Source: a virus
Direction: 5' to 3' (one strand)
DNA: 27,026 nucleotides
UHGV virus genome: UHGV-0327176
The notes beneath the pieces are model-generated. The model did no database searches. It was not told the origin of the DNA and was given only the letters and a program-made list of their open reading frames with translations. The position numbers were made by a program, and so were the translations under genes. Positions 3,010 through 23,940 of the stretch are shown here, piece after piece (positions within the stretch are counted from its first letter, which is position 1; every line of letters starts with the position of its first letter).

Positions 3010-3333
3010 ATGAAGATGCCAGAAAAACATGACCTGTTAGCCGCCATTCTCGCGGCAAAGGAACAAGGCATCGGGGCAATCCTTGCGTTTGCAATGGCGT
3101 ACCTTCGCGGCAGATATAATGGCGGTGCGTTTACAAAAACAGTAATCGACGCAACGATGTGCGCCATTATCGCCTGGTTCATTCGTGACCTTCTCGACTT
3201 CGCCGGACTAAGTAGCAATCTCGCTTATATAACGAGCGTGTTCATCGGCTACATCGGTACTGACTCGATTGGTTCGCTTATCAAACGCTTCGCTGCTAAA
3301 AAAGCCGGAGTAGAAGATGGTGGAAATCAATAA
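3010..3333 (+). CDS. S: Holin S (class I, dual-start S107/S105)
   Basis: 107 aa ORF beginning MKMPEKHD (Met1-Lys2-Met3 dual start), with three hydrophobic segments. Recalled as near-identical to lambda S. The upstream sequence ...caaatccccttattgggg... also matches lambda. Confidence 0.95.
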
Positions 3334-3793
3334 TCAACGTAAGGCGTTCCTCGATATGCTGGCGTGGTCAGAGGGAACTGATAACGGACGTCAGAAAACC
3401 AGAAATCATGGTTATGACGTCATTGTAGGAGGAGAGCTATTCACTGATTACTCCGATCACCCTCGCAAACTTGTCGCGCTAAACCCCAAACTCAAATCAA
3501 CAGCCGCCGGACGTTACCAGCTTCTTTCACGTTGGTGGGATGCCTACCGTAAGCAGCTTGGCCTGAAAGACTTCTCCCCCAAAAGCCAGGACGCTGTGGC
3601 ACTGCAACAGATTAAAGAGCGTGGCGCTTTACCAATGATTGATCGCGGTGATATTCGTCAGGCAATTGACCGTTGCAGCAATATCTGGGCTTCACTTCCG
3701 GGCGCTGGTTATGGTCAGTTCGAGCATAAGGCTGACAGCCTGATTGCAAAATTCAAAGAGGCTGGCGGAACGGTCAGAGAGATTGAGGTATGA
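3317..3793 (+). CDS. R: Endolysin R (lytic transglycosylase)
   Basis: 158 aa [42 protein letters not shown]..., recalled as lambda R. It overlaps the end of S as in lambda. Confidence 0.95.
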
Positions 3794-4227
3794 GCAGAGT
3801 AACCGCGATTATCTCCGCTCTGGTTATTTGCATCATCGTCTGCCTGTCATGGGCTGTTAATCATTACCGTGATAACGCCATCGCCTATAAAGAACAGCGC
3901 GATAAAGCCACGTCCATCATCGCTGACATGCAGAAGCGTCAACATGATGTAGCAGAACTCGACGCCAGATACACAAAGGAGCTTGCTGATGCTAACGCGA
4001 CTATCGAAAGTCTTCGTGCTGATGTTTCTGCTGGTCGTAAGCGCCTGCAAGTCGCCGCCACCTGTGCAAAGTCAACGACCGGAGCCAGCAGCATGGGCGA
4101 TGGAGAAAGCCCAGGACTTACAGCAGATGCTGAACTCAATTATTACCGTCTCCGAAGTGGAATCGACAGGATAACCGCGCAGGTTAACTACCTGCAGGAG
4201 TACATCAGGACTCAGTGCCTGAAATAA
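3790..4227 (+). CDS. Rz: Spanin inner-membrane subunit Rz (i-spanin)
   Basis: 145 aa ORF with an N-terminal transmembrane segment ([17 protein letters not shown]) and a coiled-coil periplasmic region. Lambda-Rz-like N-terminus, directly downstream of R. Confidence 0.85.
3983..4174 (+). CDS. Rz1: Spanin outer-membrane lipoprotein Rz1 (o-spanin), embedded in Rz in the +1 frame
   Basis: 63 aa ORF wholly inside Rz in another frame, with a signal peptide and lipobox-like LVVSAC followed by a proline-rich segment ([12 protein letters not shown]). This is the classic embedded Rz/Rz1 arrangement. Confidence 0.7.
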
Positions 4228-4259
4228 TTTTTTTGCAAATCACAAAGTCCATTTAATGA

Positions 4260-4284
4260 GCCTCGCGAAAAGCGGGGCTTTTTT
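4260..4284 (+). terminator. Intrinsic terminator after the lysis cassette
   Basis: Stem gcctcgc / gcggggc (7 bp including one G-U pair), loop gaaaa, then TTTTTT at 4279-4284. Confidence 0.55.
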
Positions 4285-4435
4285 ATGTCCTCAGTAAACC
4301 GCGCATTCTCGTGCGCATATCAACCAAGAGCTTTTCGGGATATGAGACAGAGACAGGACGGTGGCTTACATCGTGCCGCTCTTGGGCTGTCCATGTCTGC
4401 GAGAACTGGCTCATATCACCAAAAAGGTAAATACG

Positions 4436-5164
4436 ATGTCCAATATCATCCCGATTGATTTCGAAGGCCATCCCATGCGTTTTTCTGACGATGGCTGGTT
4501 TGACGCGACTGCGGCAGCTGACAAGTTCAACAAGGAGCCGGCTCAGTGGCTTAGGCTTCCTGAGACTGTCCGTTACATCGAGGCGTTAAAGAGTAGATAT
4601 GGGAATATCACATATGTAAAAACCAGCCGCGCTCGCAAAGACCGTGGCGGCGGAACATGGCTTCACCCAAAACTGGCGGTCAGATTTGCTCGATGGCTTT
4701 CTGTAGATTTTGAGATCTGGTGTGATGAGCAAATTGACGCAATCATTCAGGGTTCCGTTCATCATATCGACGATGAAAGAATAAAGGCTATTTTCCTTCT
4801 GGATAAATCTCAGCCATGGGAAAAGAGGTTTAGCGATCCGTTTTATTCTGCGATGTTCAAAATGTCAGGGCTGCCCCGTCATCGACCAGGTCGTCGCCCC
4901 GCACTATTTGGGATGATCAGTGCCAAGTGGGTATATGGCCAGGTATTACCACCAGAAGTATATGCAGAGGTTAAAAGACGGCTGGCTGCGGGAGACAAAA
5001 TCCATCAGCACCTTAAACCTGACGCGCTGACATTGGTTGAGCGACAGATCATTGCCGTTACCAGCATTGCCAATGGGTGCTCTGATTATCGTGATTTCGA
5101 AGCGCGTTGCATGTCGGCATTCCCGGTGAAAGGGCAGATGAAATTGCTCTATGCGGCGGCCTGA
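4436..5164 (+). CDS. KilA-N domain protein with a C-terminal domain I recall as P63C-like (accessory gene)
   Basis: The N-terminal region MSNIIPIDFEGHPMRFSDDGWFDATAAADKFNKEPAQWLRLPE...HPKLAVRFARWLSVDFEIWCDEQIDAI resembles KilA-N (APSES-type DNA-binding) domains. Start chosen at the ATG at 4436 with AAAGG 8 nt upstream; the ORF track extends to a GTG at 4361. Confidence 0.65.
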   Translation: MSNIIPIDFEGHPMRFSDDGWFDATAAADKFNKEPAQWLRLPETVRYIEALKSRYGNITYVKTSRARKDRGGGTWLHPKLAVRFARWLSVDFEIWCDEQIDAIIQGSVHHIDDERIKAIFLLDKSQPWEKRFSDPFYSAMFKMSGLPRHRPGRRPALFGMISAKWVYGQVLPPEVYAEVKRRLAAGDKIHQHLKPDALTLVERQIIAVTSIANGCSDYRDFEARCMSAFPVKGQMKLLYAAA

Positions 5165-6849: not shown

Positions 6850-8472
6850 ATGCCGTTACCATTTCCCTTCGATTTTAAACATCCTGATTACCAGATGGTT
6901 TTTGAATGGCGGATGGAACGCTTACAGCGCATTCGCCAGAACCCCGAAATGCTGCCAGCGCTTAAGCAGTTTTACCGAACCAATCCGGCTCAGTTCATCA
7001 TCGACTGGGGCATGACAACGGACCCACGTAACATCGATTATGGCCTGCCGGTGACCATTCCGTTTTTACTCTTCCCTAAGCAGGAGGAGTGGATCCACTG
7101 GATTATGGAACGCTGGGGTAATCGGGAGAATGGTATTACCGAAAAATCCCGTGAAATGGGGCTCAGTTGGACCGCGATCGGACTGGCCTGCTCGCTTTGT
7201 CTCTTCAACAAAGAAATGGTTATCGGTTTCGGCTCCCGTAAAGAGGAATACGTCGACAGCACTGGTGACCCGAAAGCATTGTTCTGGAAGGCGCGCAAGT
7301 TCGTGGAAACACTACCTGTAGAGTTTCGCGGTTCGTGGAGCGAGAAGAAGCACGCGCCATATATGCGTGTTGAGTTTCCTGAAACTGGTGCCGTTATCAA
7401 AGGCGAGGCTGGCGATAATATTGGTCGTGGTGACCGTACCACGCTTTATCTGGTTGATGAGGCTGCATTCCTTCAGCGTCCTCTGCTGATTGATGCGGCG
7501 TTGTCACAAACCACCCGCTGCCGTATCGACCTGAGTTCGGTTAACGGCATGGCGAACCCGTTCGCGCAGAAGCGTCACGGCGGGAAGATACCGGTATTCA
7601 CATTCCACTGGCGAAATGACCCGCGCAAGGATGAAGAGTGGTATCGCAGGGAATGCGAGAAAATCGATAATCCGGTGGTGGTGGCACAGGAACTTGATCT
7701 GAACTACAGCGCATCAGCGGAAGGCGTCCTGATTCCATCCGAATGGGTACAGGCTGCCGTTGATGCGCATATCAAACTGGGGATCCAGCCAACAGGCAAA
7801 CGACTTGGCGCGATGGATGTCGCCGACGAAGGCAGGGACAAAAATTCCTTTTCCACTCGTCATGGCTTCCTCCTGGAGAATGTGCGGGAATGGTCCGGTG
7901 TGGGCAGCGACATTTATCAGTCCGTCGAGAAGGTCTTCGGCTTTTGCGAACAGGACGATCTTGAAGAGTTTCGCTTTGACGAGGACGGGCTGGGCGCTGG
8001 CGTTCGCGGCGATGCACGCGCTATCAACGAACTGCGTAACGCTGCGCGCCGACAGTCAATACTCGCCACACCGTTTCGTGGTAGCGGCGCGGTATTTGAT
8101 CCGGACGATGAAGCGGTGCGCGGGGACAACGGACAGGCCGCACGCCTGAACAAGGACTTCTTCGCCAACGCCAAGGCCCAAAGCTGGTGGTGGCTACGCA
8201 ACCTTTTCCAGAACACCTATCGCGCCGTGGTTGAGGGCATGGCCTACAACCCGGACGAAATCATCTCAATCAGCAGTAGCATGGCGCTCAAAGATAAACT
8301 CATCATCGAGCTTTCGCAGCCGACCTATTCCATTAATGGTGTGGGAAAAATCGTTATTGATAAACAGCCTGATGGAACCCGGTCGCCAAACCTTGCCGAC
8401 TCGGTGATGATCAGCTACGCGCCAATGAATTCAGCCCTGAACATCTGGGAGCTGCTAGGGAGACAGGCCTGA
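6850..8472 (+). CDS. Terminase large subunit
   Basis: 540 aa ORF directly after the small subunit and before the portal. Has an N-terminal ATPase-like region and an acidic DEAAF segment consistent with a terminase nuclease/ATPase. Assignment rests on size, order and general resemblance. Confidence 0.8.
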
Positions 8473-17563: not shown

Positions 17564-17751
17564 CCTTCAATAGCCTGCCGGGCGGTGAAGATTTTATTCT
17601 TCGTCCGGCGCTTGCCTTCCATATTGACCAGAAAGACCTTAACAGCGGTGCGGTAGATCTTTGCCGCATCGCGCTTCTCAATGACTACCTCGACATGCGC
17701 GAGGATAACGACGCCCGGGTAGATAAATGGAGAGCGGCCAATGAGCGGTAA
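17138..17751 (+). CDS. Tail assembly chaperone, predicted -1 frameshift fusion (GT-like product)
   Basis: Slippery heptamer A_AAT_TTT at 17509-17515 in the zero frame (codons gga|aat|ttt, followed by a TTTTTT run). The -1 frame is open for 78 codons (17515-17748) and stops at TAA 17749-17751, overlapping the tape measure ATG at 17741. Hand-translated with no internal stops. Confidence 0.55.
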
Positions 17752-19753
17752 CGCAGATACGATTAAAGATTTCCTTGTTTCGCTGGGATTCGATATCGAT
17801 CAGGCTGGCGCTAATAAGTTTGAAGCCGTGCTGAAAGGTGTTACCGCGAACGTTCTGAAGGTCGGCGCGGTGGTGGAAGGCGCAGCGCTGAGCATTGTCG
17901 GATTTACCACCCAGATCGCGAATGGTCTGGATAAAATTTACTGGGCATCCCAGCGGACGGGGGCCAGCGTCCAGGGCATCAAAGCGCTGGGCTATGCCGC
18001 ATCGCAAACCGGTGCCAGCGCCGAGTCGGCTATGTCCTCCCTCGAAGGGCTGGCGGGGTTCATGCGTAGCAATCCGGGGGCGGAAGGCTTCCTGAACCGC
18101 CTGGGTGTCCAGACCCGTGATGCCAGCGGAAAGATGCGTGATACTGCGGCCATCTTTACTGGCGTTGGGCAAAAGCTCAACAACATGCCGTATTACCGCG
18201 CGAAGCAATACGCGCAGATGCTTGGCATCGATGAAAACACGCTGATGGCGATGCGGCGCGGCATGAATGGCTTTACCGCCGATTACCAGTCGATGCTGCA
18301 AAAGACAAGGTTCAACGCTGATAAAGCGGCTGTTCAGTCCAACAAATTCATGACGTCCATGCGCGGGCTTACGTCGCTGTTCGGCATCATGCGGGACAAG
18401 ATCGGCTCAAACCTCGCTGGTGGCCTGGCTGGTTCGCTGGACAGCCTGCGGCGGCGCATCCTCGACAATTTCCCGAAGATTGAAGAGACGCTTACCAGAG
18501 TTATTAACGGCGTGATCTGGCTTGCGAACGCATTCACGAGAATGGCGTGGCGGCTGATACAGGGCGCTGGCTCTGTCATCGACTGGTGGAAGCGTCTTGA
18601 CGATGGCAGTAAAAATCTGCTGAAAATATTCGGTGCTCTACTTGTCGCATGGCGTCTGCTTAATTCTGCGTTCCTGAAATCCCCGATTGGAATTATCACC
18701 ACGCTGATTCTGGCGATCGGATTACTCTATGACGATTACCAGACGTGGAAAGAGGGCGGAAAAAGCCTGATTGACTGGAGCAAGTGGGAACCAGCAATAG
18801 AAAAGGCGAAAAAGGCAATTATCTGGCTGCGAGATAAGCTGTTGGAGCTAAAAGATTCTGTCGGTGGGTGGCAGAACTCACTGGAAATTTTGGCTACCTT
18901 CATTGCAGGGGTATGGTTAAGCAAAATAACCTCTGCATTTGCTAAGTTAGCCGGAATACCTATGCCGCCATGGCTGAAGCTGTGGGCTATTTATGCCGGG
19001 TATCTGGTGGACGACAGGCATAATATTAAAGAAAGCGCTAAATCATCATGGGACTACACCAAAGGAAACATCGGAGATGCGCTCCGCTGGATGGGGTTTA
19101 ATACCGATTTTGGCCGCAATCCCAATACCGTGTATGGCGCGAATATTCAGTCAGATATTCCAGGCGCTGAACCGGAGCAATACGCCCAGTCAGTGAAGCG
19201 CCCACAAGCCACAGCCCAGGGTAAGGTATTGCTCGACTGGATGGGGCCAATGTTCAATAAACTGGAGTCGCTTTATCAGCTGCCAGCTGGCCTGTTGAAA
19301 AGCGTGGCGATCACCGAGTCGGGTGGTAACCAGTTCGCCATATCCGGCGCAGGCGCGAAAGGACTGTTTCAGTTTATGGATGGCACGGCGCGCGACATGG
19401 GCCTGCGTGGGAATGATGTATTCGACCCGGAAAAGTCAGCTCAGGCAGCCGCTAAGTACCTCAGCCAGCTGTTGCGGCAGAACGGCGGAGACCTTAGCAA
19501 AGCACTGGCATCATATAACTGGGGGATCGGGAATGTTAAGCGTTATGGAATGGGGCTAATGCCGCAGGAAACGCGCAATTACATTCCGAAAGTAATGAGC
19601 AATATGCCCACCAGCGCCCCGGTGATTCAGCAGGAAACGAACATTAACATCCACGGCGTTTCCGATCCTCGCGAAGCTGCCCGTTTGACTGTTGACCGTC
19701 AAAAGGGCGTGAATTCACAGTTAACCCAGCAACTCCCCGCAGGACCGAGATAA
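17741..19753 (+). CDS. Tape measure protein with a C-terminal lytic transglycosylase (SLT) motif
   Basis: 670 aa ORF after the chaperone, with hydrophobic segments in the middle (IFGALLVAWRLL, IITTLILAIGLLY). The segment ITESGGNQFAISGAGAKGLFQFMDGTARDMGL matches the catalytic-Glu-Ser lytic transglycosylase motif. Confidence 0.75.
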   Translation: MSGNADTIKDFLVSLGFDIDQAGANKFEAVLKGVTANVLKVGAVVEGAALSIVGFTTQIANGLDKIYWASQRTGASVQGIKALGYAASQTGASAESAMSSLEGLAGFMRSNPGAEGFLNRLGVQTRDASGKMRDTAAIFTGVGQKLNNMPYYRAKQYAQMLGIDENTLMAMRRGMNGFTADYQSMLQKTRFNADKAAVQSNKFMTSMRGLTSLFGIMRDKIGSNLAGGLAGSLDSLRRRILDNFPKIEETLTRVINGVIWLANAFTRMAWRLIQGAGSVIDWWKRLDDGSKNLLKIFGALLVAWRLLNSAFLKSPIGIITTLILAIGLLYDDYQTWKEGGKSLIDWSKWEPAIEKAKKAIIWLRDKLLELKDSVGGWQNSLEILATFIAGVWLSKITSAFAKLAGIPMPPWLKLWAIYAGYLVDDRHNIKESAKSSWDYTKGNIGDALRWMGFNTDFGRNPNTVYGANIQSDIPGAEPEQYAQSVKRPQATAQGKVLLDWMGPMFNKLESLYQLPAGLLKSVAITESGGNQFAISGAGAKGLFQFMDGTARDMGLRGNDVFDPEKSAQAAAKYLSQLLRQNGGDLSKALASYNWGIGNVKRYGMGLMPQETRNYIPKVMSNMPTSAPVIQQETNINIHGVSDPREAARLTVDRQKGVNSQLTQQLPAGPR

Positions 19754-20664: not shown

Positions 20665-21729
20665 ATGTCTCTTAACTGGATGCGCCATTTTGAGCTGCAA
20701 CTGTTGGACCAGAACGGGCAGGGCGTTTCCCTGTCTGACTTTAAGGTCACGTTCCAGATCGAGTGGGCAGACACACGCTGGCCGCGCGTGGCGAACGTGA
20801 AAATTTACAACCTTTCGACCGATACCACGAACAAGATACTGGGGCAGGAGTTTGCCAAAATTCGCATCATTGCCGGGTATGACGGTATAGCGCCGGATGT
20901 TGATGCGAGCCAGGTCGGCGTCGCCCGAGAGATTTCACCAGACCAGATAGGGCAGGTGAACGGTCAGAACTACGGCCTGATTTTTGACGGTGATATTCGC
21001 TTTACCGTAACCGGGAAGGACAACATTACCGATTCCTGGGTGTTGATTCAGGCTATTGGAGATCATGAAGCGTTCCTCTACGCGACTACCATCACTACGC
21101 TTGCCGCTGGCTATACCGTTGCGGATCTGCACCGGGCGACGATGCAGGATTTCAACGTGTTCGGCGTGACACAGGGCATTACCGGCGATTTTCCTGATAC
21201 CGTGTTTCCTCGTGGCCGCGCGATTTACTCATCCACTCGTAACGTGATGGATAATATTGCAGCGCAGTGCAAAGCGACATGGCAGCTGGTGGATGGTCAG
21301 GTCCAGATGGTGCCGGAGGATAAATATATTCACGAAGCCATTGTGTTGAATGCCAATACTGGCCTGATTGGTATGCCGCAACAGACGATGGGCGGCGGCG
21401 TAAACGTGCGGTGCCTGATAAACCCAAACATCCGCATTAATGGTCTTATCCAGCTCGATCAGGCTTCGGTGTACCGCGCGTCGCTCGGTAATAGCGAAAT
21501 CGCACAGTCGCCCGGGCGTATCACCGAAACTGAAGAGAATGGCAACCGTGTGCTGACCGGTACGACGTCACAGGCTGCCAGCATTGCGACGGATGGCGTT
21601 TATATCGTCAAAGCTATCGACTATACTGGCGACACCAGAGGTCAGGCGTGGTACATGGATTTGATGTGCTTTGCGCGTGGCAGTCGTGAATTATATAGTC
21701 AGTCGACGCTCCAAAAAGTACAGGTGTGA
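20665..21729 (+). CDS. Putative baseplate hub protein (P2 gpD / Mu P-like position)
   Basis: 354 aa ORF upstream of the spike-like gene in a P2/Mu-like baseplate gene order. Family inferred from order and size only. Confidence 0.5.
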   Translation: MSLNWMRHFELQLLDQNGQGVSLSDFKVTFQIEWADTRWPRVANVKIYNLSTDTTNKILGQEFAKIRIIAGYDGIAPDVDASQVGVAREISPDQIGQVNGQNYGLIFDGDIRFTVTGKDNITDSWVLIQAIGDHEAFLYATTITTLAAGYTVADLHRATMQDFNVFGVTQGITGDFPDTVFPRGRAIYSSTRNVMDNIAAQCKATWQLVDGQVQMVPEDKYIHEAIVLNANTGLIGMPQQTMGGGVNVRCLINPNIRINGLIQLDQASVYRASLGNSEIAQSPGRITETEENGNRVLTGTTSQAASIATDGVYIVKAIDYTGDTRGQAWYMDLMCFARGSRELYSQSTLQKVQV

Positions 21730-21730
21730 T

Positions 21731-22081
21731 ATGACAAAAATTAGGAATGTTATCTGCGGAGCCGTTCTTTCGTTGGTCGGAGCTTCAACTGCAATGGCTG
21801 ATACCCAATGCGGGCCATATCGCCTCACCGCAGGTAATGATGGTTTTATGCATATTAATGGTGTAAAGCCAGAAAACCAGAAAATGACCTTTCTGAAAGC
21901 CAAGGAAGATTATCAAAATCTCAAGATGGAATGGACGGTTGCAACTAATCAACCCGGCCGCTGGGTTGGGCTTGAGTACATCAAGCGCAACGGCAAAGCC
22001 ATTCTCAACGCACAGTGGCTGCAAGCCAGCATGGATTCGCCGCGTCAGTATGCAACATACGACTGCCGAAAAGTAAAATAG
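21731..22081 (+). CDS. Moron: secreted (periplasmic) protein with a Sec signal peptide, unknown function
   Basis: ATG at 21731, 1 nt after the hub stop, with AGGTG upstream. The N-terminus MTKIRNVICGAVLSLVGASTAMA/DTQCG is a typical signal peptide with an AxA cleavage site. Two Cys in the mature part. GC content is lower than the flanking tail genes. Stop TAG at 22079-22081 runs into a GC hairpin. Confidence 0.6.
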   Translation: MTKIRNVICGAVLSLVGASTAMADTQCGPYRLTAGNDGFMHINGVKPENQKMTFLKAKEDYQNLKMEWTVATNQPGRWVGLEYIKRNGKAILNAQWLQASMDSPRQYATYDCRKVK

Positions 22082-22099
22082 CCCGCCAGATAGGCGGGC
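22081..22099. terminator. Shared hairpin between the convergent moron genes (intrinsic terminator for the - strand gene)
   Basis: Perfect 7-bp stem gcccgcc / ggcgggc with loop agata. On the - strand it is followed by TATTTTACTTTT; on the + strand it is preceded by an A-rich run. Confidence 0.55.
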
Positions 22100-22104
22100 A
22101 TGCG

Positions 22105-22395
22105 TCAAAAATATTGAGCTTTAATTATAATAAACACAATAATTACGAACAGGATGTTTCTAATTATTTTTTGCTTATGAGTAAGTTGTTTTTTTTCTGT
22201 CGATTTCCCGGGAGAGTAAAGGTTAGTGGTATGCGACAGCCCCGTGCCGGGAAGGCCATTTGTCATCTTTACGCCTTTTTTTCCGATGTTAATGGTGGAA
22301 CCTTTACCACCAATTGAAGTGCTTACTCCGCTTTTACTAATGTTGATCGCGAGTCCGGGCGCAATCCGGATTCTTTTACGAAATCTAAATCCCAT
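22105..22395 (-). CDS. Moron: small membrane-anchored protein, N-terminal domain recalled as DUF4236-like
   Basis: The only standalone - strand ORF in the window. Strong ribosome-binding site AGGAG 6 nt before the ATG (read on the - strand). The N-terminus MGFRFRKRIRIAPGLAINISKSGVSTSIGGKGSTINIGKKG...GLPGTGLS matches my recollection of the DUF4236 signature. C-terminal hydrophobic helix IIRNILFVIIVFIII. Very AT-rich 3' half. Confidence 0.65.
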   Translation of the reverse strand: MGFRFRKRIRIAPGLAINISKSGVSTSIGGKGSTINIGKKGVKMTNGLPGTGLSHTTNLYSPGKSTEKKQLTHKQKIIRNILFVIIVFIIIKAQYF

Positions 22396-22582
22396 TTGTT
22401 ACTCCTGTAGTCAATAATGCGATGGTGCAGGTCCACTCTATGGCGGCTTCATGGCTGAAATTGATTTTCAATGCTTACTTGTTGCAAACATATCCTAATA
22501 CACCTTGTGAATGTGTGCCATTGCAGCGGAAAAGCCTTACTTCACACTGATGTAGCTTAGTTACTAAGAGATAATTGATACC

Positions 22583-22607
22583 AAACCAGCTTCGGCTGGT
22601 TTTTTTA
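22583..22607 (+). terminator. Intrinsic terminator at the right edge of the moron island
   Basis: Stem accagc / gctggt (22585-22600) with loop ttcg, followed by a T-run of 6-7, about 10 nt upstream of the spike gene ATG. Confidence 0.55.
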
Positions 22608-22617
22608 TGGGGGTTTT

Positions 22618-23358
22618 ATGCCAATTCCAACTCAATCACAGATCGGGGGTGAGCAGCAGACCGCGCAGGCCATTGCCGATTCGGTGTCTACCCAGATGCG
22701 CGTAGCGATGCCCGGCATCATTCAGTCGTTCGATCCTGACACTGTTACCTGCACAGTAGAGGTAGCGCTTCGCGGTATTGTTGGCGATGGCTCCACCGAA
22801 TTAAAACCGCTGGTGGATGTGCCGGTTATCTTCCCGCGCGGCGGCGGTTGCACGCTGACCTTTCCGGTAAAAGAAGGCGACGAGTGCCTGCTGATCTTTG
22901 CCGACCGTTGCATCGATTTCTGGTGGCAGAGCGGCGGCGTTCAGGAGACCGTCGATCCGCGACAGCATGACTTATCTGATGCGTTCGCCATCGTTGGCCC
23001 GCAGTCGCAAGCACAGAAAATCAGCGGTATCAGTACCAGCGCCGCGCAGCTGCGAACCGATGATGGTGCGGCGTTCGTAGAGGTTGCCGCAGGACATAAC
23101 ATCACCGTTCAAACACCGGGCCAGCTCACGGCTACGGCTGAAGGTGGAACGACAATCACATCCCCGACTATCACGCTGAACGGCAACGTAACGATTAATG
23201 GCAATCTGTCTCAGGGAATGGGCGAAAGTGGCGGTACTGCGACGATGCTTGGGCCGGTGACGGTGACTAACGATGTGAAGGCTGGAGGAAAGAGCCTCAT
23301 CCAGCATACCCATGGCGGTGTGCAGAATGGCAGCGGGAATACTACCGCGCCTAATTAA
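22618..23358 (+). CDS. Baseplate spike protein (gpV / Mu gp45-like)
   Basis: 246 aa ORF with a Gly/Thr-rich C-terminal region typical of spike beta-helix proteins, and HTHGG near the C-terminus reminiscent of the His-containing apex motif. Lies upstream of W-, J- and I-like genes. Confidence 0.65.
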   Translation: MPIPTQSQIGGEQQTAQAIADSVSTQMRVAMPGIIQSFDPDTVTCTVEVALRGIVGDGSTELKPLVDVPVIFPRGGGCTLTFPVKEGDECLLIFADRCIDFWWQSGGVQETVDPRQHDLSDAFAIVGPQSQAQKISGISTSAAQLRTDDGAAFVEVAAGHNITVQTPGQLTATAEGGTTITSPTITLNGNVTINGNLSQGMGESGGTATMLGPVTVTNDVKAGGKSLIQHTHGGVQNGSGNTTAPN

Positions 23359-23377
23359 AAACTACCAAACAGACAAA

Positions 23378-23410
23378 AGCCCCGGGTGCGCTAACACTTC
23401 GGGGCTTTTT
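23378..23410 (+). terminator. Candidate intrinsic terminator after the spike gene
   Basis: Stem agccccg (23378-23384) / cggggct (23400-23406) with a 15-nt loop, followed by TTTTT. Confidence 0.45.
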
Positions 23411-23484
23411 ACTTTCTGCACCTTGAGGATAGCAAGGGAGAATATGTGATTAATTTTAGCAAACTGATACGGGAGTTGCGAGTC

Positions 23485-23583
23485 ATGGGCGAAAAACTAC
23501 CCAACTGGAAATTCTTCCTCATCTGGGCCGTGTTCTTTTTATTCGGTCTGTCAAGCGTTATTAGCGCTATACGCTGGTGGTGA
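23485..23583 (+). CDS. Small hydrophobic peptide (32 aa, single predicted transmembrane helix)
   Basis: Not in the ORF track (under 60 aa). ATG at 23485 preceded by GGGAG with a 9-nt spacer. Translates to MGEKLPNWKFFLIWAVFFLFGLSSVISAIRWW then TGA at 23581-23583, 3 nt before the next gene's ATG. Confidence 0.4.
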   Translation: MGEKLPNWKFFLIWAVFFLFGLSSVISAIRWW

Positions 23584-23586
23584 TTT

Positions 23587-23940
23587 ATGCGATACAGACG
23601 TGAAGACACCGACGGTGATTACACTTTCGGGCAGGGTGACGATACTTTCCTTATCGACAGTCCGGAATGTGTCGCCCAGGCAGTAAAAACCCGCTTCGAG
23701 CTGTGGCGCGGTCAGTGGTTTCTCGATCTGACGGAAGGCACGCCGTATGTTCAGTCGGTGCTTGGTAAACAGCGATCTGACGTCTACATCCTGGCTATAC
23801 GTGAACGCATACAGGACACACCGGGCGTTCTGTCGATTCTTTCCTTCGATACCAATTATGACGGCACCAGCCGTCGCGTCACCTTCACTTCCTCCATTGA
23901 CACAATCTACGGCCAGACGACTGTAACAAGCGAGGCATAA
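23587..23940 (+). CDS. Baseplate protein (gpW / gp25-like position)
   Basis: 117 aa ORF immediately upstream of the J-like gene (stop/start TAAATG). Called by size and order. Confidence 0.5.
   Translation: MRYRREDTDGDYTFGQGDDTFLIDSPECVAQAVKTRFELWRGQWFLDLTEGTPYVQSVLGKQRSDVYILAIRERIQDTPGVLSILSFDTNYDGTSRRVTFTSSIDTIYGQTTVTSEA

Follow-up and report, generated by a model that had tools for sequence, protein, structure and literature searches.

An antisense DUF4236 gene in a cargo slot of the baseplate operon of a lambda-regulated myovirus prophage: a candidate superinfection-exclusion moron

Introduction

What kind of element interrupts the baseplate operon of the virus genome UHGV-0327176, and what might its product do? 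The stretch analysed, referred to below as the window, is 27,026 nucleotides (nt) long. Between its baseplate hub gene and its central spike gene lie an open reading frame (ORF) for an exported protein, ORF1 (21731-22081, + strand), and a convergent gene for a membrane protein of the DUF4236 family (22105-22395, - strand), accompanied by two hairpins (22081-22099 and 22583-22606) and a non-coding spacer of 187 bp (22396-22582). An original prediction, made from the letters alone, proposed that the two genes form a single inserted island with the layout of a moron, and that their products could work together as an envelope-level exclusion or defence module. Both genes, both hairpins and the spacer were confirmed at these positions, and the region does interrupt the baseplate operon between hub and spike. 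Comparison with related loci gave a different picture of the mobile unit: ORF1 is a fixed neighbour, and the DUF4236 gene with its terminators is one of many cargoes of a variable slot. We put at about 0.5 the probability of the overall reading, namely a fixed ORF1 followed by a cargo slot that carries an antisense DUF4236 moron with an entry-blocking product.

Results

ORF1 is fixed and the DUF4236 cassette is mobile

Three sets of loci were compared, anchored on ORF1, on the hub (unbiased as to ORF1) and on the DUF4236 gene, and the hub-anchored sampling was repeated in a sister lineage typified by Klebsiella phage RCIP0034. The conserved left flank is the hub gene (20665-21729, + strand; E217 gp41-type, PF22759 E217_GP41 at 26.7 bits against a cut-off of 27), the product of which is 96-98% identical among relatives with differing cargo. 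The conserved right flank is the spike gene (22618-23358, + strand), encoding a Gp138-type N-terminal domain (PF18352, E 1.1e-41) and an Apex motif (PF18946, E 3.8e-07). Directly after the hub, ORF1 was found in 73 of the 76 hub-anchored loci of the window lineage, free-standing in 63 and fused into a lipoprotein in 10, the remaining 3 loci having an unrelated lipoprotein in its position; in the sister lineage it was present in 71 of 75 loci. Because about 95% of the relatives carry ORF1 whatever lies downstream, it stands outside the mobile unit. The DUF4236 cassette was detected in only 21/68 (window lineage) and 11/75 (sister lineage) hub-anchored loci, a distribution at odds with a two-gene island inherited as a unit.

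The same conclusion was reached from the pairing of alleles. After dereplication, 87 junctions fell into 22 ORF1 allele groups at 90% identity. A near-identical cassette (96-100% amino-acid identity) was linked to 7 of these groups, 5 of which hold both cassette-positive and cassette-negative members, and ORF1 alleles at 97-99% identity adjoin quite different cargo. ORF1 and the cassette reassort freely. The supposed co-occurrence of the two genes thus failed, and a single co-inherited two-gene island is ruled out by the hub-anchored sampling together with the table of ORF1 alleles against cassettes. The pairing with 7 allele groups, 5 of them mixed, sets the left boundary at the ORF1 stop codon; and since the sequence after this stop codon is identical in DUF4236 cassettes and different in the other cargo classes, the left edge lies at 22081/22082 rather than at 21731. 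What moves is a cassette of about 0.5 kb (22081-22606) with a low G+C content, consisting of the antisense DUF4236 gene, its own terminator and a linked + strand terminator. The G+C content is 52-57% in the flanks, 44-52% in ORF1 and 37-46% in the cassette. The predicted insertion at the hub-spike junction therefore holds for the cassette, which is variably present among relatives, and not for ORF1.

The slot between ORF1 and the spike gene is a hotspot

The slot runs from just after the ORF1 stop codon to the spike ribosome-binding site. The gap between the ORF1 stop and the spike gene measured 62-2121 bp in loci of the window lineage and 69-1850 bp in those of the sister lineage, the shortest gaps representing empty sites (62 bp with only the terminator, and 69 bp, respectively). 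At least 27 unrelated cargo classes were counted in 79 junctions of the window lineage, the gaps of which extended up to 1.7 kb, and many more were seen in the sister lineage. Most of the dozens of cargo types are unannotated. Those identified include Phd/Doc pairs, the YafO toxin, recurring two-gene sets in which the second protein shows weak HEPN_IX matches, a weak PD-T4-9_C match, and a homolog of SNIPE / PD-Lambda-1 (PADLOC, E 3.6e-84), present in 15 of 80 sister-lineage loci (for example L268, 4483-5712, with a T5orf172/MUG113 domain). The junction thus displays what is expected of a hotspot: conserved flanks, many unrelated cargo sets and known defence genes among them.

In agreement with the moron layout first proposed, the DUF4236 cassette shows three of the five features that define morons in HK97 and HK022, i.e., presence or absence among close relatives, its own terminator and a deviating (low G+C) base composition. 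A classical moron is the best reading of this cassette. It contains one ORF only, and is carried by 19 of 5426 complete E. coli genomes, always as a single copy; the one in E. coli I3 (NZ_CP195969) is 100% identical to that of the window.

The two hairpins serve opposite strands

The left end of the cassette is formed by hairpin 1 (22081-22099, - strand), the intrinsic terminator of the DUF4236 gene, with a stem of 7 G-C pairs (GCCCGCC / GGCGGGC) and a loop of 5 nt. Its folding energy is -16.4 kcal/mol on the + strand and -16.7 on the - strand (z about -3.8), and none of 200 shuffled sequences was as stable. The first base of hairpin 1 is the final base of the ORF1 stop codon, and the hairpin is 5 nt away from the DUF4236 stop codon. 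The two convergent genes had been thought to share this hairpin. The hairpin itself is real, but it is the DUF4236 gene's own: a U-tract (UAUUUUACUUU, 22070-22080) follows on the - strand only, and the structure travels with the cassette, not with ORF1, being identical in all DUF4236 cassettes whatever the ORF1 allele and missing from the other cargo types. A shared bidirectional terminator was rejected on these two grounds.

Hairpin 2 (22583-22606, + strand) is a canonical intrinsic terminator with a stem at 22583-22590 / 22595-22602, the loop TTCG and a run of seven T (22600-22606). As predicted, it closes the island just upstream of the spike gene, ending 11 nt before the ATG at 22618. By energy alone it is unremarkable (z -1.9; 9 of 200 shuffles as stable). 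A strict rule picked out an equivalent hairpin with a T-run, placed 14-16 nt ahead of the spike ATG, in 175 of 192 related loci. Variant hairpins, in part lacking a clean T-run, are found in the others, and the empty sites keep a terminator. The stem-loop variants were counted by a per-sequence hairpin search, the stem arms being out of register in the MAFFT alignment, and 24 distinct stem-loops were obtained, with compensatory changes such as ACCAGC/GCTGGT, ACCCGC/GCGGGT and AGCCGC/GCGGCT. The conservation of a pre-spike hairpin is far beyond chance. All 21 DUF4236 cassettes at ≥96% identity come with the ACCAGC/GCTGGT variant, and therefore the + strand terminator travels with its cargo; on the right-hand side, recombination must take place in the T-run or in the spike ribosome-binding site. 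Since the DUF4236 gene is encoded on the opposite strand, this terminator cannot serve it, and can only halt + strand transcription arriving from the hub/ORF1 side.

The spacer (22396-22582) includes, on the - strand, the upstream region of the DUF4236 gene with a Shine-Dalgarno (SD) sequence AGGAG, a 5' leader and the presumed promoter. Nucleotide homology to locus L199, a copy in the tail operon of a lambda-like siphovirus, covers 22241-22449, and the 54 nt upstream of the DUF4236 start (22396-22449) are about 75% identical to L199 3947-4000, which suggests a common leader or regulatory element. Part of the spacer region is deleted in the relative L023. A known RNA in the spacer was considered and dismissed: the sub-threshold isrK and Trp-leader matches rest on the terminator, and the Rfam isrK match (22523-22605, + strand; 23.4 bits against a gathering threshold of 50, with broken pairs in helices 1 and 2) was judged to be a chance match.

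The DUF4236 protein recurs beside tape-measure and tail-tip genes

The DUF4236 gene encodes 96 amino acids and matches PF14020 over residues 3-55 (E 1.8e-20), with a score of 73.6 bits that is above the gathering threshold (cut-off 27). This domain (nt 22231-22389) was modelled as a six-strand beta-meander by AlphaFold 2 (predicted local distance difference test, pLDDT, 78.6), and is followed by a variable linker and a C-terminal hydrophobic membrane helix at residues 73-95 (nt 22111-22179). The product is predicted to be a tail-anchored inner-membrane protein with its N-terminal domain in the cytoplasm. The net charge of the first 60 residues is +10, and ranges from +6 to +12 across 48 homologs. 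No DUF4041 or GIY-YIG (T5orf172) domain was detected in the window proteins, nor any enzymatic domain in the DUF4236 protein.

The family is large, with 8,561 cluster representatives at E ≤0.001 (about 8,500 clusters at 50% identity). In the best 150 of the 8,561 hits, no more than about 60 residues precede the domain. A membrane helix follows it in about 90% of the 256 closest members; 59% of the 256 are tail-anchored, and in 24% the helix is succeeded by another domain, e.g., SH3, of more than 40 residues. At least five diverged lineages (Klebsiella, Hafnia and three metagenomic types) have homologs at 51-61% identity in this hub/ORF1-to-spike slot; their hubs are 51-63% identical to the window hub where measured. 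In other tail types, DUF4236 genes were found between the tape measure and gpM genes of lambda-like tails, at the gpK-to-gpI junction of Pseudomonas syringae prophages, and between chaperone and tape measure genes in metagenomic siphoviruses, a Pantoea prophage and the Clostridioides difficile phage phiCD38-2. In an Acinetobacter phage, the gene lies upstream of a 1,643-residue ORF taken as the tape measure from its size only. A terminator of its own was located at the same place downstream of 8 out of 14 divergent DUF4236 genes. As a separate observation, the gpK-to-gpI gap of HK97 itself (L238, 6014-6334) contains an unannotated 32-residue ORF with a membrane helix, followed by an annotated terminator.

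In most distinct contexts, the DUF4236 gene adjoins, in convergent, divergent or tandem orientation, a gene whose product is small and exported, as a rule a lipoprotein. By a crude signal-peptide rule, 13 of 28 immediate neighbours were exported proteins or lipoproteins against 10 of 141 other ORFs of the same loci (Fisher p 1.8e-6), a count that is inflated because six of the contexts represent one and the same slot, to which an exported gene belongs in any case. In addition, tail-operon morons in general may be rich in envelope proteins. The exported neighbours elsewhere look unrelated to one another by inspection, some of them without any family match, and were rejected as ORF1 homologs (hhalign probability ≤3.5%).

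ORF1 encodes a small exported beta-barrel protein

ORF1 starts 1 nt past the hub stop codon and is preceded by the Shine-Dalgarno sequence AGGTG. Its product of 116 amino acids begins with a signal peptide (residues 1-23, MTKIRNVICGAVLSLVGASTAMA, followed by DTQC) with an A-M-A cleavage motif, and contains two invariant Cys residues. The mature protein was modelled as an 8-stranded up-and-down beta-barrel (AlphaFold, pLDDT 83). The family is phrog_3443, and no Pfam, NCBIfam or PADLOC match was obtained. Taken with its position, ORF1 is a fixed late-operon gene for a small exported beta-barrel protein.

Avidins top the fold searches with ORF1. Like avidin and streptavidin, ORF1 is a secreted 8-stranded up-and-down barrel of about 90-120 residues; over residues 64-99 it weakly matches strands 5-7 of avidin (hmmsearch E 0.0036-0.9; hhalign probability 30%), and Trp68 and Trp97 align with avidin Trp70 and Trp97, which we take to be biotin-pocket tryptophans. 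In contrast, the N-terminal half is unmatched, the disulfide partner differs and, except for the two Trp, the biotin-binding residues are not aligned. Local match and fold resemblance are insufficient for calling ORF1 an avidin, and Pfam Avidin matched none of 45 family members.

In the fused variant, found in 10 of the 76 hub-anchored loci (L109 at 4069-4959, L096, L105, L110, L111, L113, L115, L117, L127 and L166), the ORF1 domain is the C-terminal part of a 296-residue lipoprotein. The N-terminal part of this lipoprotein carries DDCQTWKSKGKSLIDWS, a near-copy (BLASTP E 3e-6) of a loop of the tape measure protein, DDYQTWKEGGKSLIDWS, which occupies residues 331-347 between hydrophobic segments. 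The near-copied loop hints that the ORF1 domain and the tape measure are connected. An SLT-like region in the fused variant was discarded, as it was a weak second BLAST segment unsupported by Pfam.

Discussion

Proposed transcription and function of the cassette

The interval under study lies inside the Q-dependent late operon of a prophage that combines lambda-like regulation with a myovirus tail; the regulation is called lambda-like because a 96.5%-identical E. coli prophage carries cI, cro, cII, N and Q. The Q antiterminator gene (1714-2337, + strand; PF03589 Antiterm, E 1.3e-57) is located upstream of the entire + strand late operon. With Q encoded in the window and all late genes on the + strand, Q-dependent read-through of the + strand terminator, as suggested in the original prediction, is reasonable. 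In the lysogen, the DUF4236 gene would be transcribed on its own from the spacer, stopping at hairpin 1, and + strand transcription entering from the hub/ORF1 side would halt at the + strand terminator, so keeping the baseplate genes silent. After induction, Q-modified RNA polymerase would pass both hairpins, and convergent late transcription would damp expression of the DUF4236 gene. Insulation of the baseplate genes in the lysogen with read-through after induction would be the simplest reading of this arrangement, and is the logic proposed for the HK97 morons (PMC3594210).

The DUF4236 protein would reside in the inner membrane, exposing its strongly basic beta-sheet domain on the cytoplasmic face, and could block entry at the step where tape-measure and tail-tip proteins form a channel. 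Its mode would resemble that of HK97 gp15, P22 SieA or T4 Imm, DUF4236 being unrelated to any of them. Judging from position and topology, the cassette is most likely a superinfection-exclusion factor working like HK97 gp15. Interference with genome entry at the inner membrane is the most likely role of its product, at about one chance in three. ORF1 probably acts on this genome-entry step as well, as a periplasmic accessory factor in its own right, an assignment we make with less assurance.

Several points weigh against an entry-blocking product and its expression from the spacer. A consensus scan of the - strand of 22396-22582 gave no sigma-70-like site, and a looser scan gave weak candidates only. 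The conserved DUF4236 domain is predicted to be cytoplasmic, and how it would stop a channel formed from outside is not obvious. Neither the DUF4236 protein nor ORF1 matched any family of PADLOC-DB 2.0, the fold searches yielded generic beta-sheet matches only, and no functional literature was found for DUF4236, STY1065, STY2022 or phrog_3443. To this extent, the expectation of an undescribed system is borne out: we found no described function for the DUF4236 product. Distant members occur in large lytic phages and in non-phage contexts, indicating that the family is not restricted to tail operons or to lysogeny. Finally, guilt by position is weak evidence, the slot also holding toxin-antitoxin pairs and genes with no evident defence role.

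Alternative explanations

The pairing originally envisaged, in which a periplasmic ORF1 and an inner-membrane DUF4236 protein are the two components of one envelope exclusion module in the manner of T4 Imm plus Sp, appears doubtful. Several deeply diverged lineages do have the convergent pair in the same slot, exported proteins are enriched next to DUF4236 genes as described above, with more cases noted by eye, and the 24% of members in which the helix is followed by another domain of over 40 residues look like a fused version of such a pair. Within the lineage, however, ORF1 is kept in about 95% of relatives and the cassette in 15-31% only, one cassette is combined with 7 ORF1 allele groups, 5 of them with and without it, and near-identical ORF1 alleles stand beside differing cargo; this independent assortment argues against an obligate pair. 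The exported neighbours elsewhere are not homologous to ORF1, and the six contexts from the same slot would contribute an exported gene in any case. Equally speculative is a broader proposal that DUF4236 proteins are the inner-membrane half of a widespread, undescribed trans-envelope module, planted beside tape-measure and tail-tip genes and controlling genome passage, with a fast-evolving exported partner encoded next door or fused; the partner would set the specificity, and the basic beta-sheet would engage DNA or the tape measure.

The small size and single membrane pass of the DUF4236 protein, as well as the toxin-antitoxin modules that share its slot, would also suit a role other than blocking entry: the protein could be an abortive-infection effector acting on the membrane, or it could modulate the timing of lysis. 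Small membrane proteins are common among abortive-infection effectors. We consider this improbable, given that the single-ORF cassette supplies no partner antitoxin or sensor, that the gene is far from the lysis cassette (3317-4227), and that about 70 residues, about 55 of them in the conserved folded domain, precede the helix on the predicted cytoplasmic side, a tail-anchored arrangement unlike that of holins; in addition, DUF4236 recurs specifically beside tape-measure and tail-tip genes. Such recurrence next to genes of the injection machinery, across unrelated tail types, is likewise hard to explain if the cassette were a lysogenic-conversion gene giving the host a benefit unrelated to phages (envelope stress, colonisation), as lambda Bor and Lom do, and the domain is found in strictly lytic phages too. 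The moron layout by itself is silent on function, the cassette is rare in E. coli (19/5426 complete genomes), and many morons encode envelope proteins with host-fitness roles (PMC3594210); even so, we give little weight to lysogenic conversion. Least probable is a role in the phage's own cycle, such as tail assembly or delivery of its own genome, for which the co-orientation with tail genes between chaperone and tape measure in phiCD38-2 (gp15) and in L242 might be quoted. DUF4236 is absent from 69-85% of close relatives with otherwise near-identical tail genes, and in the window the gene runs against the late operon and ends in a terminator of its own.

Comparison with known systems

The moron encoding HK97 gp15 (Juhala et al. 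2000; Cumby et al. 2012; reviewed in PMC3594210) is among the systems closest to the DUF4236 cassette. Both are single small genes inserted in a tail operon, HK97 gp15 lying next to the tape-measure gene, and some DUF4236 genes occupy exactly the gp15 slot between chaperone and tape measure. The geometry is also similar, with a terminator at 8398-8422 and a tape-measure start at 8435 in HK97, and a terminator end at 22606 and a spike start at 22618 in the window. The gp15 protein, small and located in the inner membrane, prevents DNA entry, with an effect that depends on the tail of the incoming phage (PMC3594210). The two proteins differ in that gp15 has 62 residues with an N-terminal membrane helix, whereas in the DUF4236 protein the folded domain is N-terminal and the anchor C-terminal; moreover, the DUF4236 gene is antisense to the operon and has a second, - strand terminator. 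By inspection only, translated gp15 shows no evident resemblance to the DUF4236 protein, and was not taken as a homolog.

SNIPE, an inner-membrane defence protein, binds tape-measure proteins and cuts DNA during injection; it is membrane-anchored and has a positively charged cytoplasmic DNA-binding domain (PMC13190303). An inner-membrane anchor combined with a positively charged cytoplasmic domain is also predicted for the DUF4236 protein, and a SNIPE homolog occupies the same ORF1-to-spike slot in the sister lineage. In contrast, the anchor of SNIPE is N-terminal, and the DUF4236 protein lacks both DUF4041 and the GIY-YIG nuclease.

As for the slot, the Z/fun and old/tin sites of P2 are hotspots of phage accessory and defence genes (Rousset et al. 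2022; bioRxiv 10.1101/2024.10.15.618418). The present slot resembles these P2-type hotspots in its conserved structural flanks and highly variable cargo including defence systems and toxin-antitoxin pairs, and Z/fun is also situated among tail genes, downstream of a baseplate gene. It differs in being the hub/ORF1-to-spike junction of a lambdoid-regulated myovirus with an E217/Pam3-type baseplate, and in that all cargo versions and the empty site end in a terminator hairpin immediately before the spike ribosome-binding site. No description of this junction was found in a limited literature search. The Tai tail-assembly-interference systems were also considered and set aside: the main text of the paper describing them contains no DUF or transmembrane term, and their genes are mostly upstream of the packaging module.

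For a two-layer action in the envelope, the nearest precedent is T4 Imm and Sp, one an inner-membrane and one a periplasmic protein, each acting on the injection step. Imm and Sp act independently of each other, and neither is homologous to DUF4236 or ORF1. T4 Sp is helical and inhibits the gp5 lysozyme; in contrast, ORF1 is a beta-barrel, and the spike in the window has no lysozyme domain.

What is new here is this junction, the recurrent placement of an unstudied family in tail operons, and the association of that family with exported neighbours. The textbook moron layout and the presence of hotspots in phage tail operons were known already, and the architecture alone will not surprise a specialist. 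The large, unstudied DUF4236 family gains a testable hypothesis: its placement next to tape-measure, hub and tail-tip genes, and the slot shared with SNIPE, point to the genome-injection step, at which few defence mechanisms are understood. Compact and sharply bounded, from stop codon to terminator, the hub/ORF1-to-spike junction is a hotspot in which new defence genes may be sought.

Other features of the late operon

The window represents the late half of the prophage, with genes for NinG, Q, lysis, head and a contractile tail, all on the + strand. The tape measure gene (17741-19753, + strand) encodes hydrophobic segments and a C-terminal SLT lytic transglycosylase domain (PF01464, E 3.4e-25); a motif is present three times in its product, as GSVIDWW, GKSLIDWS and GKVLLDWM (residues about 276-282, 339-346 and 494-501). 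Other parts of the tail module include a Dit-like protein and a Pam3-type plug. Directly after the lysis genes, a strong + strand terminator (4258-4280) is followed by a KilA-N/P63C gene (4361-5164), which looks like another moron-like site in the late operon. Downstream of the spike gene, the gene at 23587-23940 encodes 117 amino acids without a Pfam hit here, its counterpart in relatives being annotated as sheath initiator (PF10934). Between these two genes is a second small insertion (23359-23586), with a hairpin at about 23379-23406 and an ORF of 45 residues (23446-23583; GTG start, SD AGGGAG) that ends in a C-terminal membrane helix. This insertion was found only in relatives with a spike aligning over all 246 residues, i.e., L007, L022, L031, L036 and L064.

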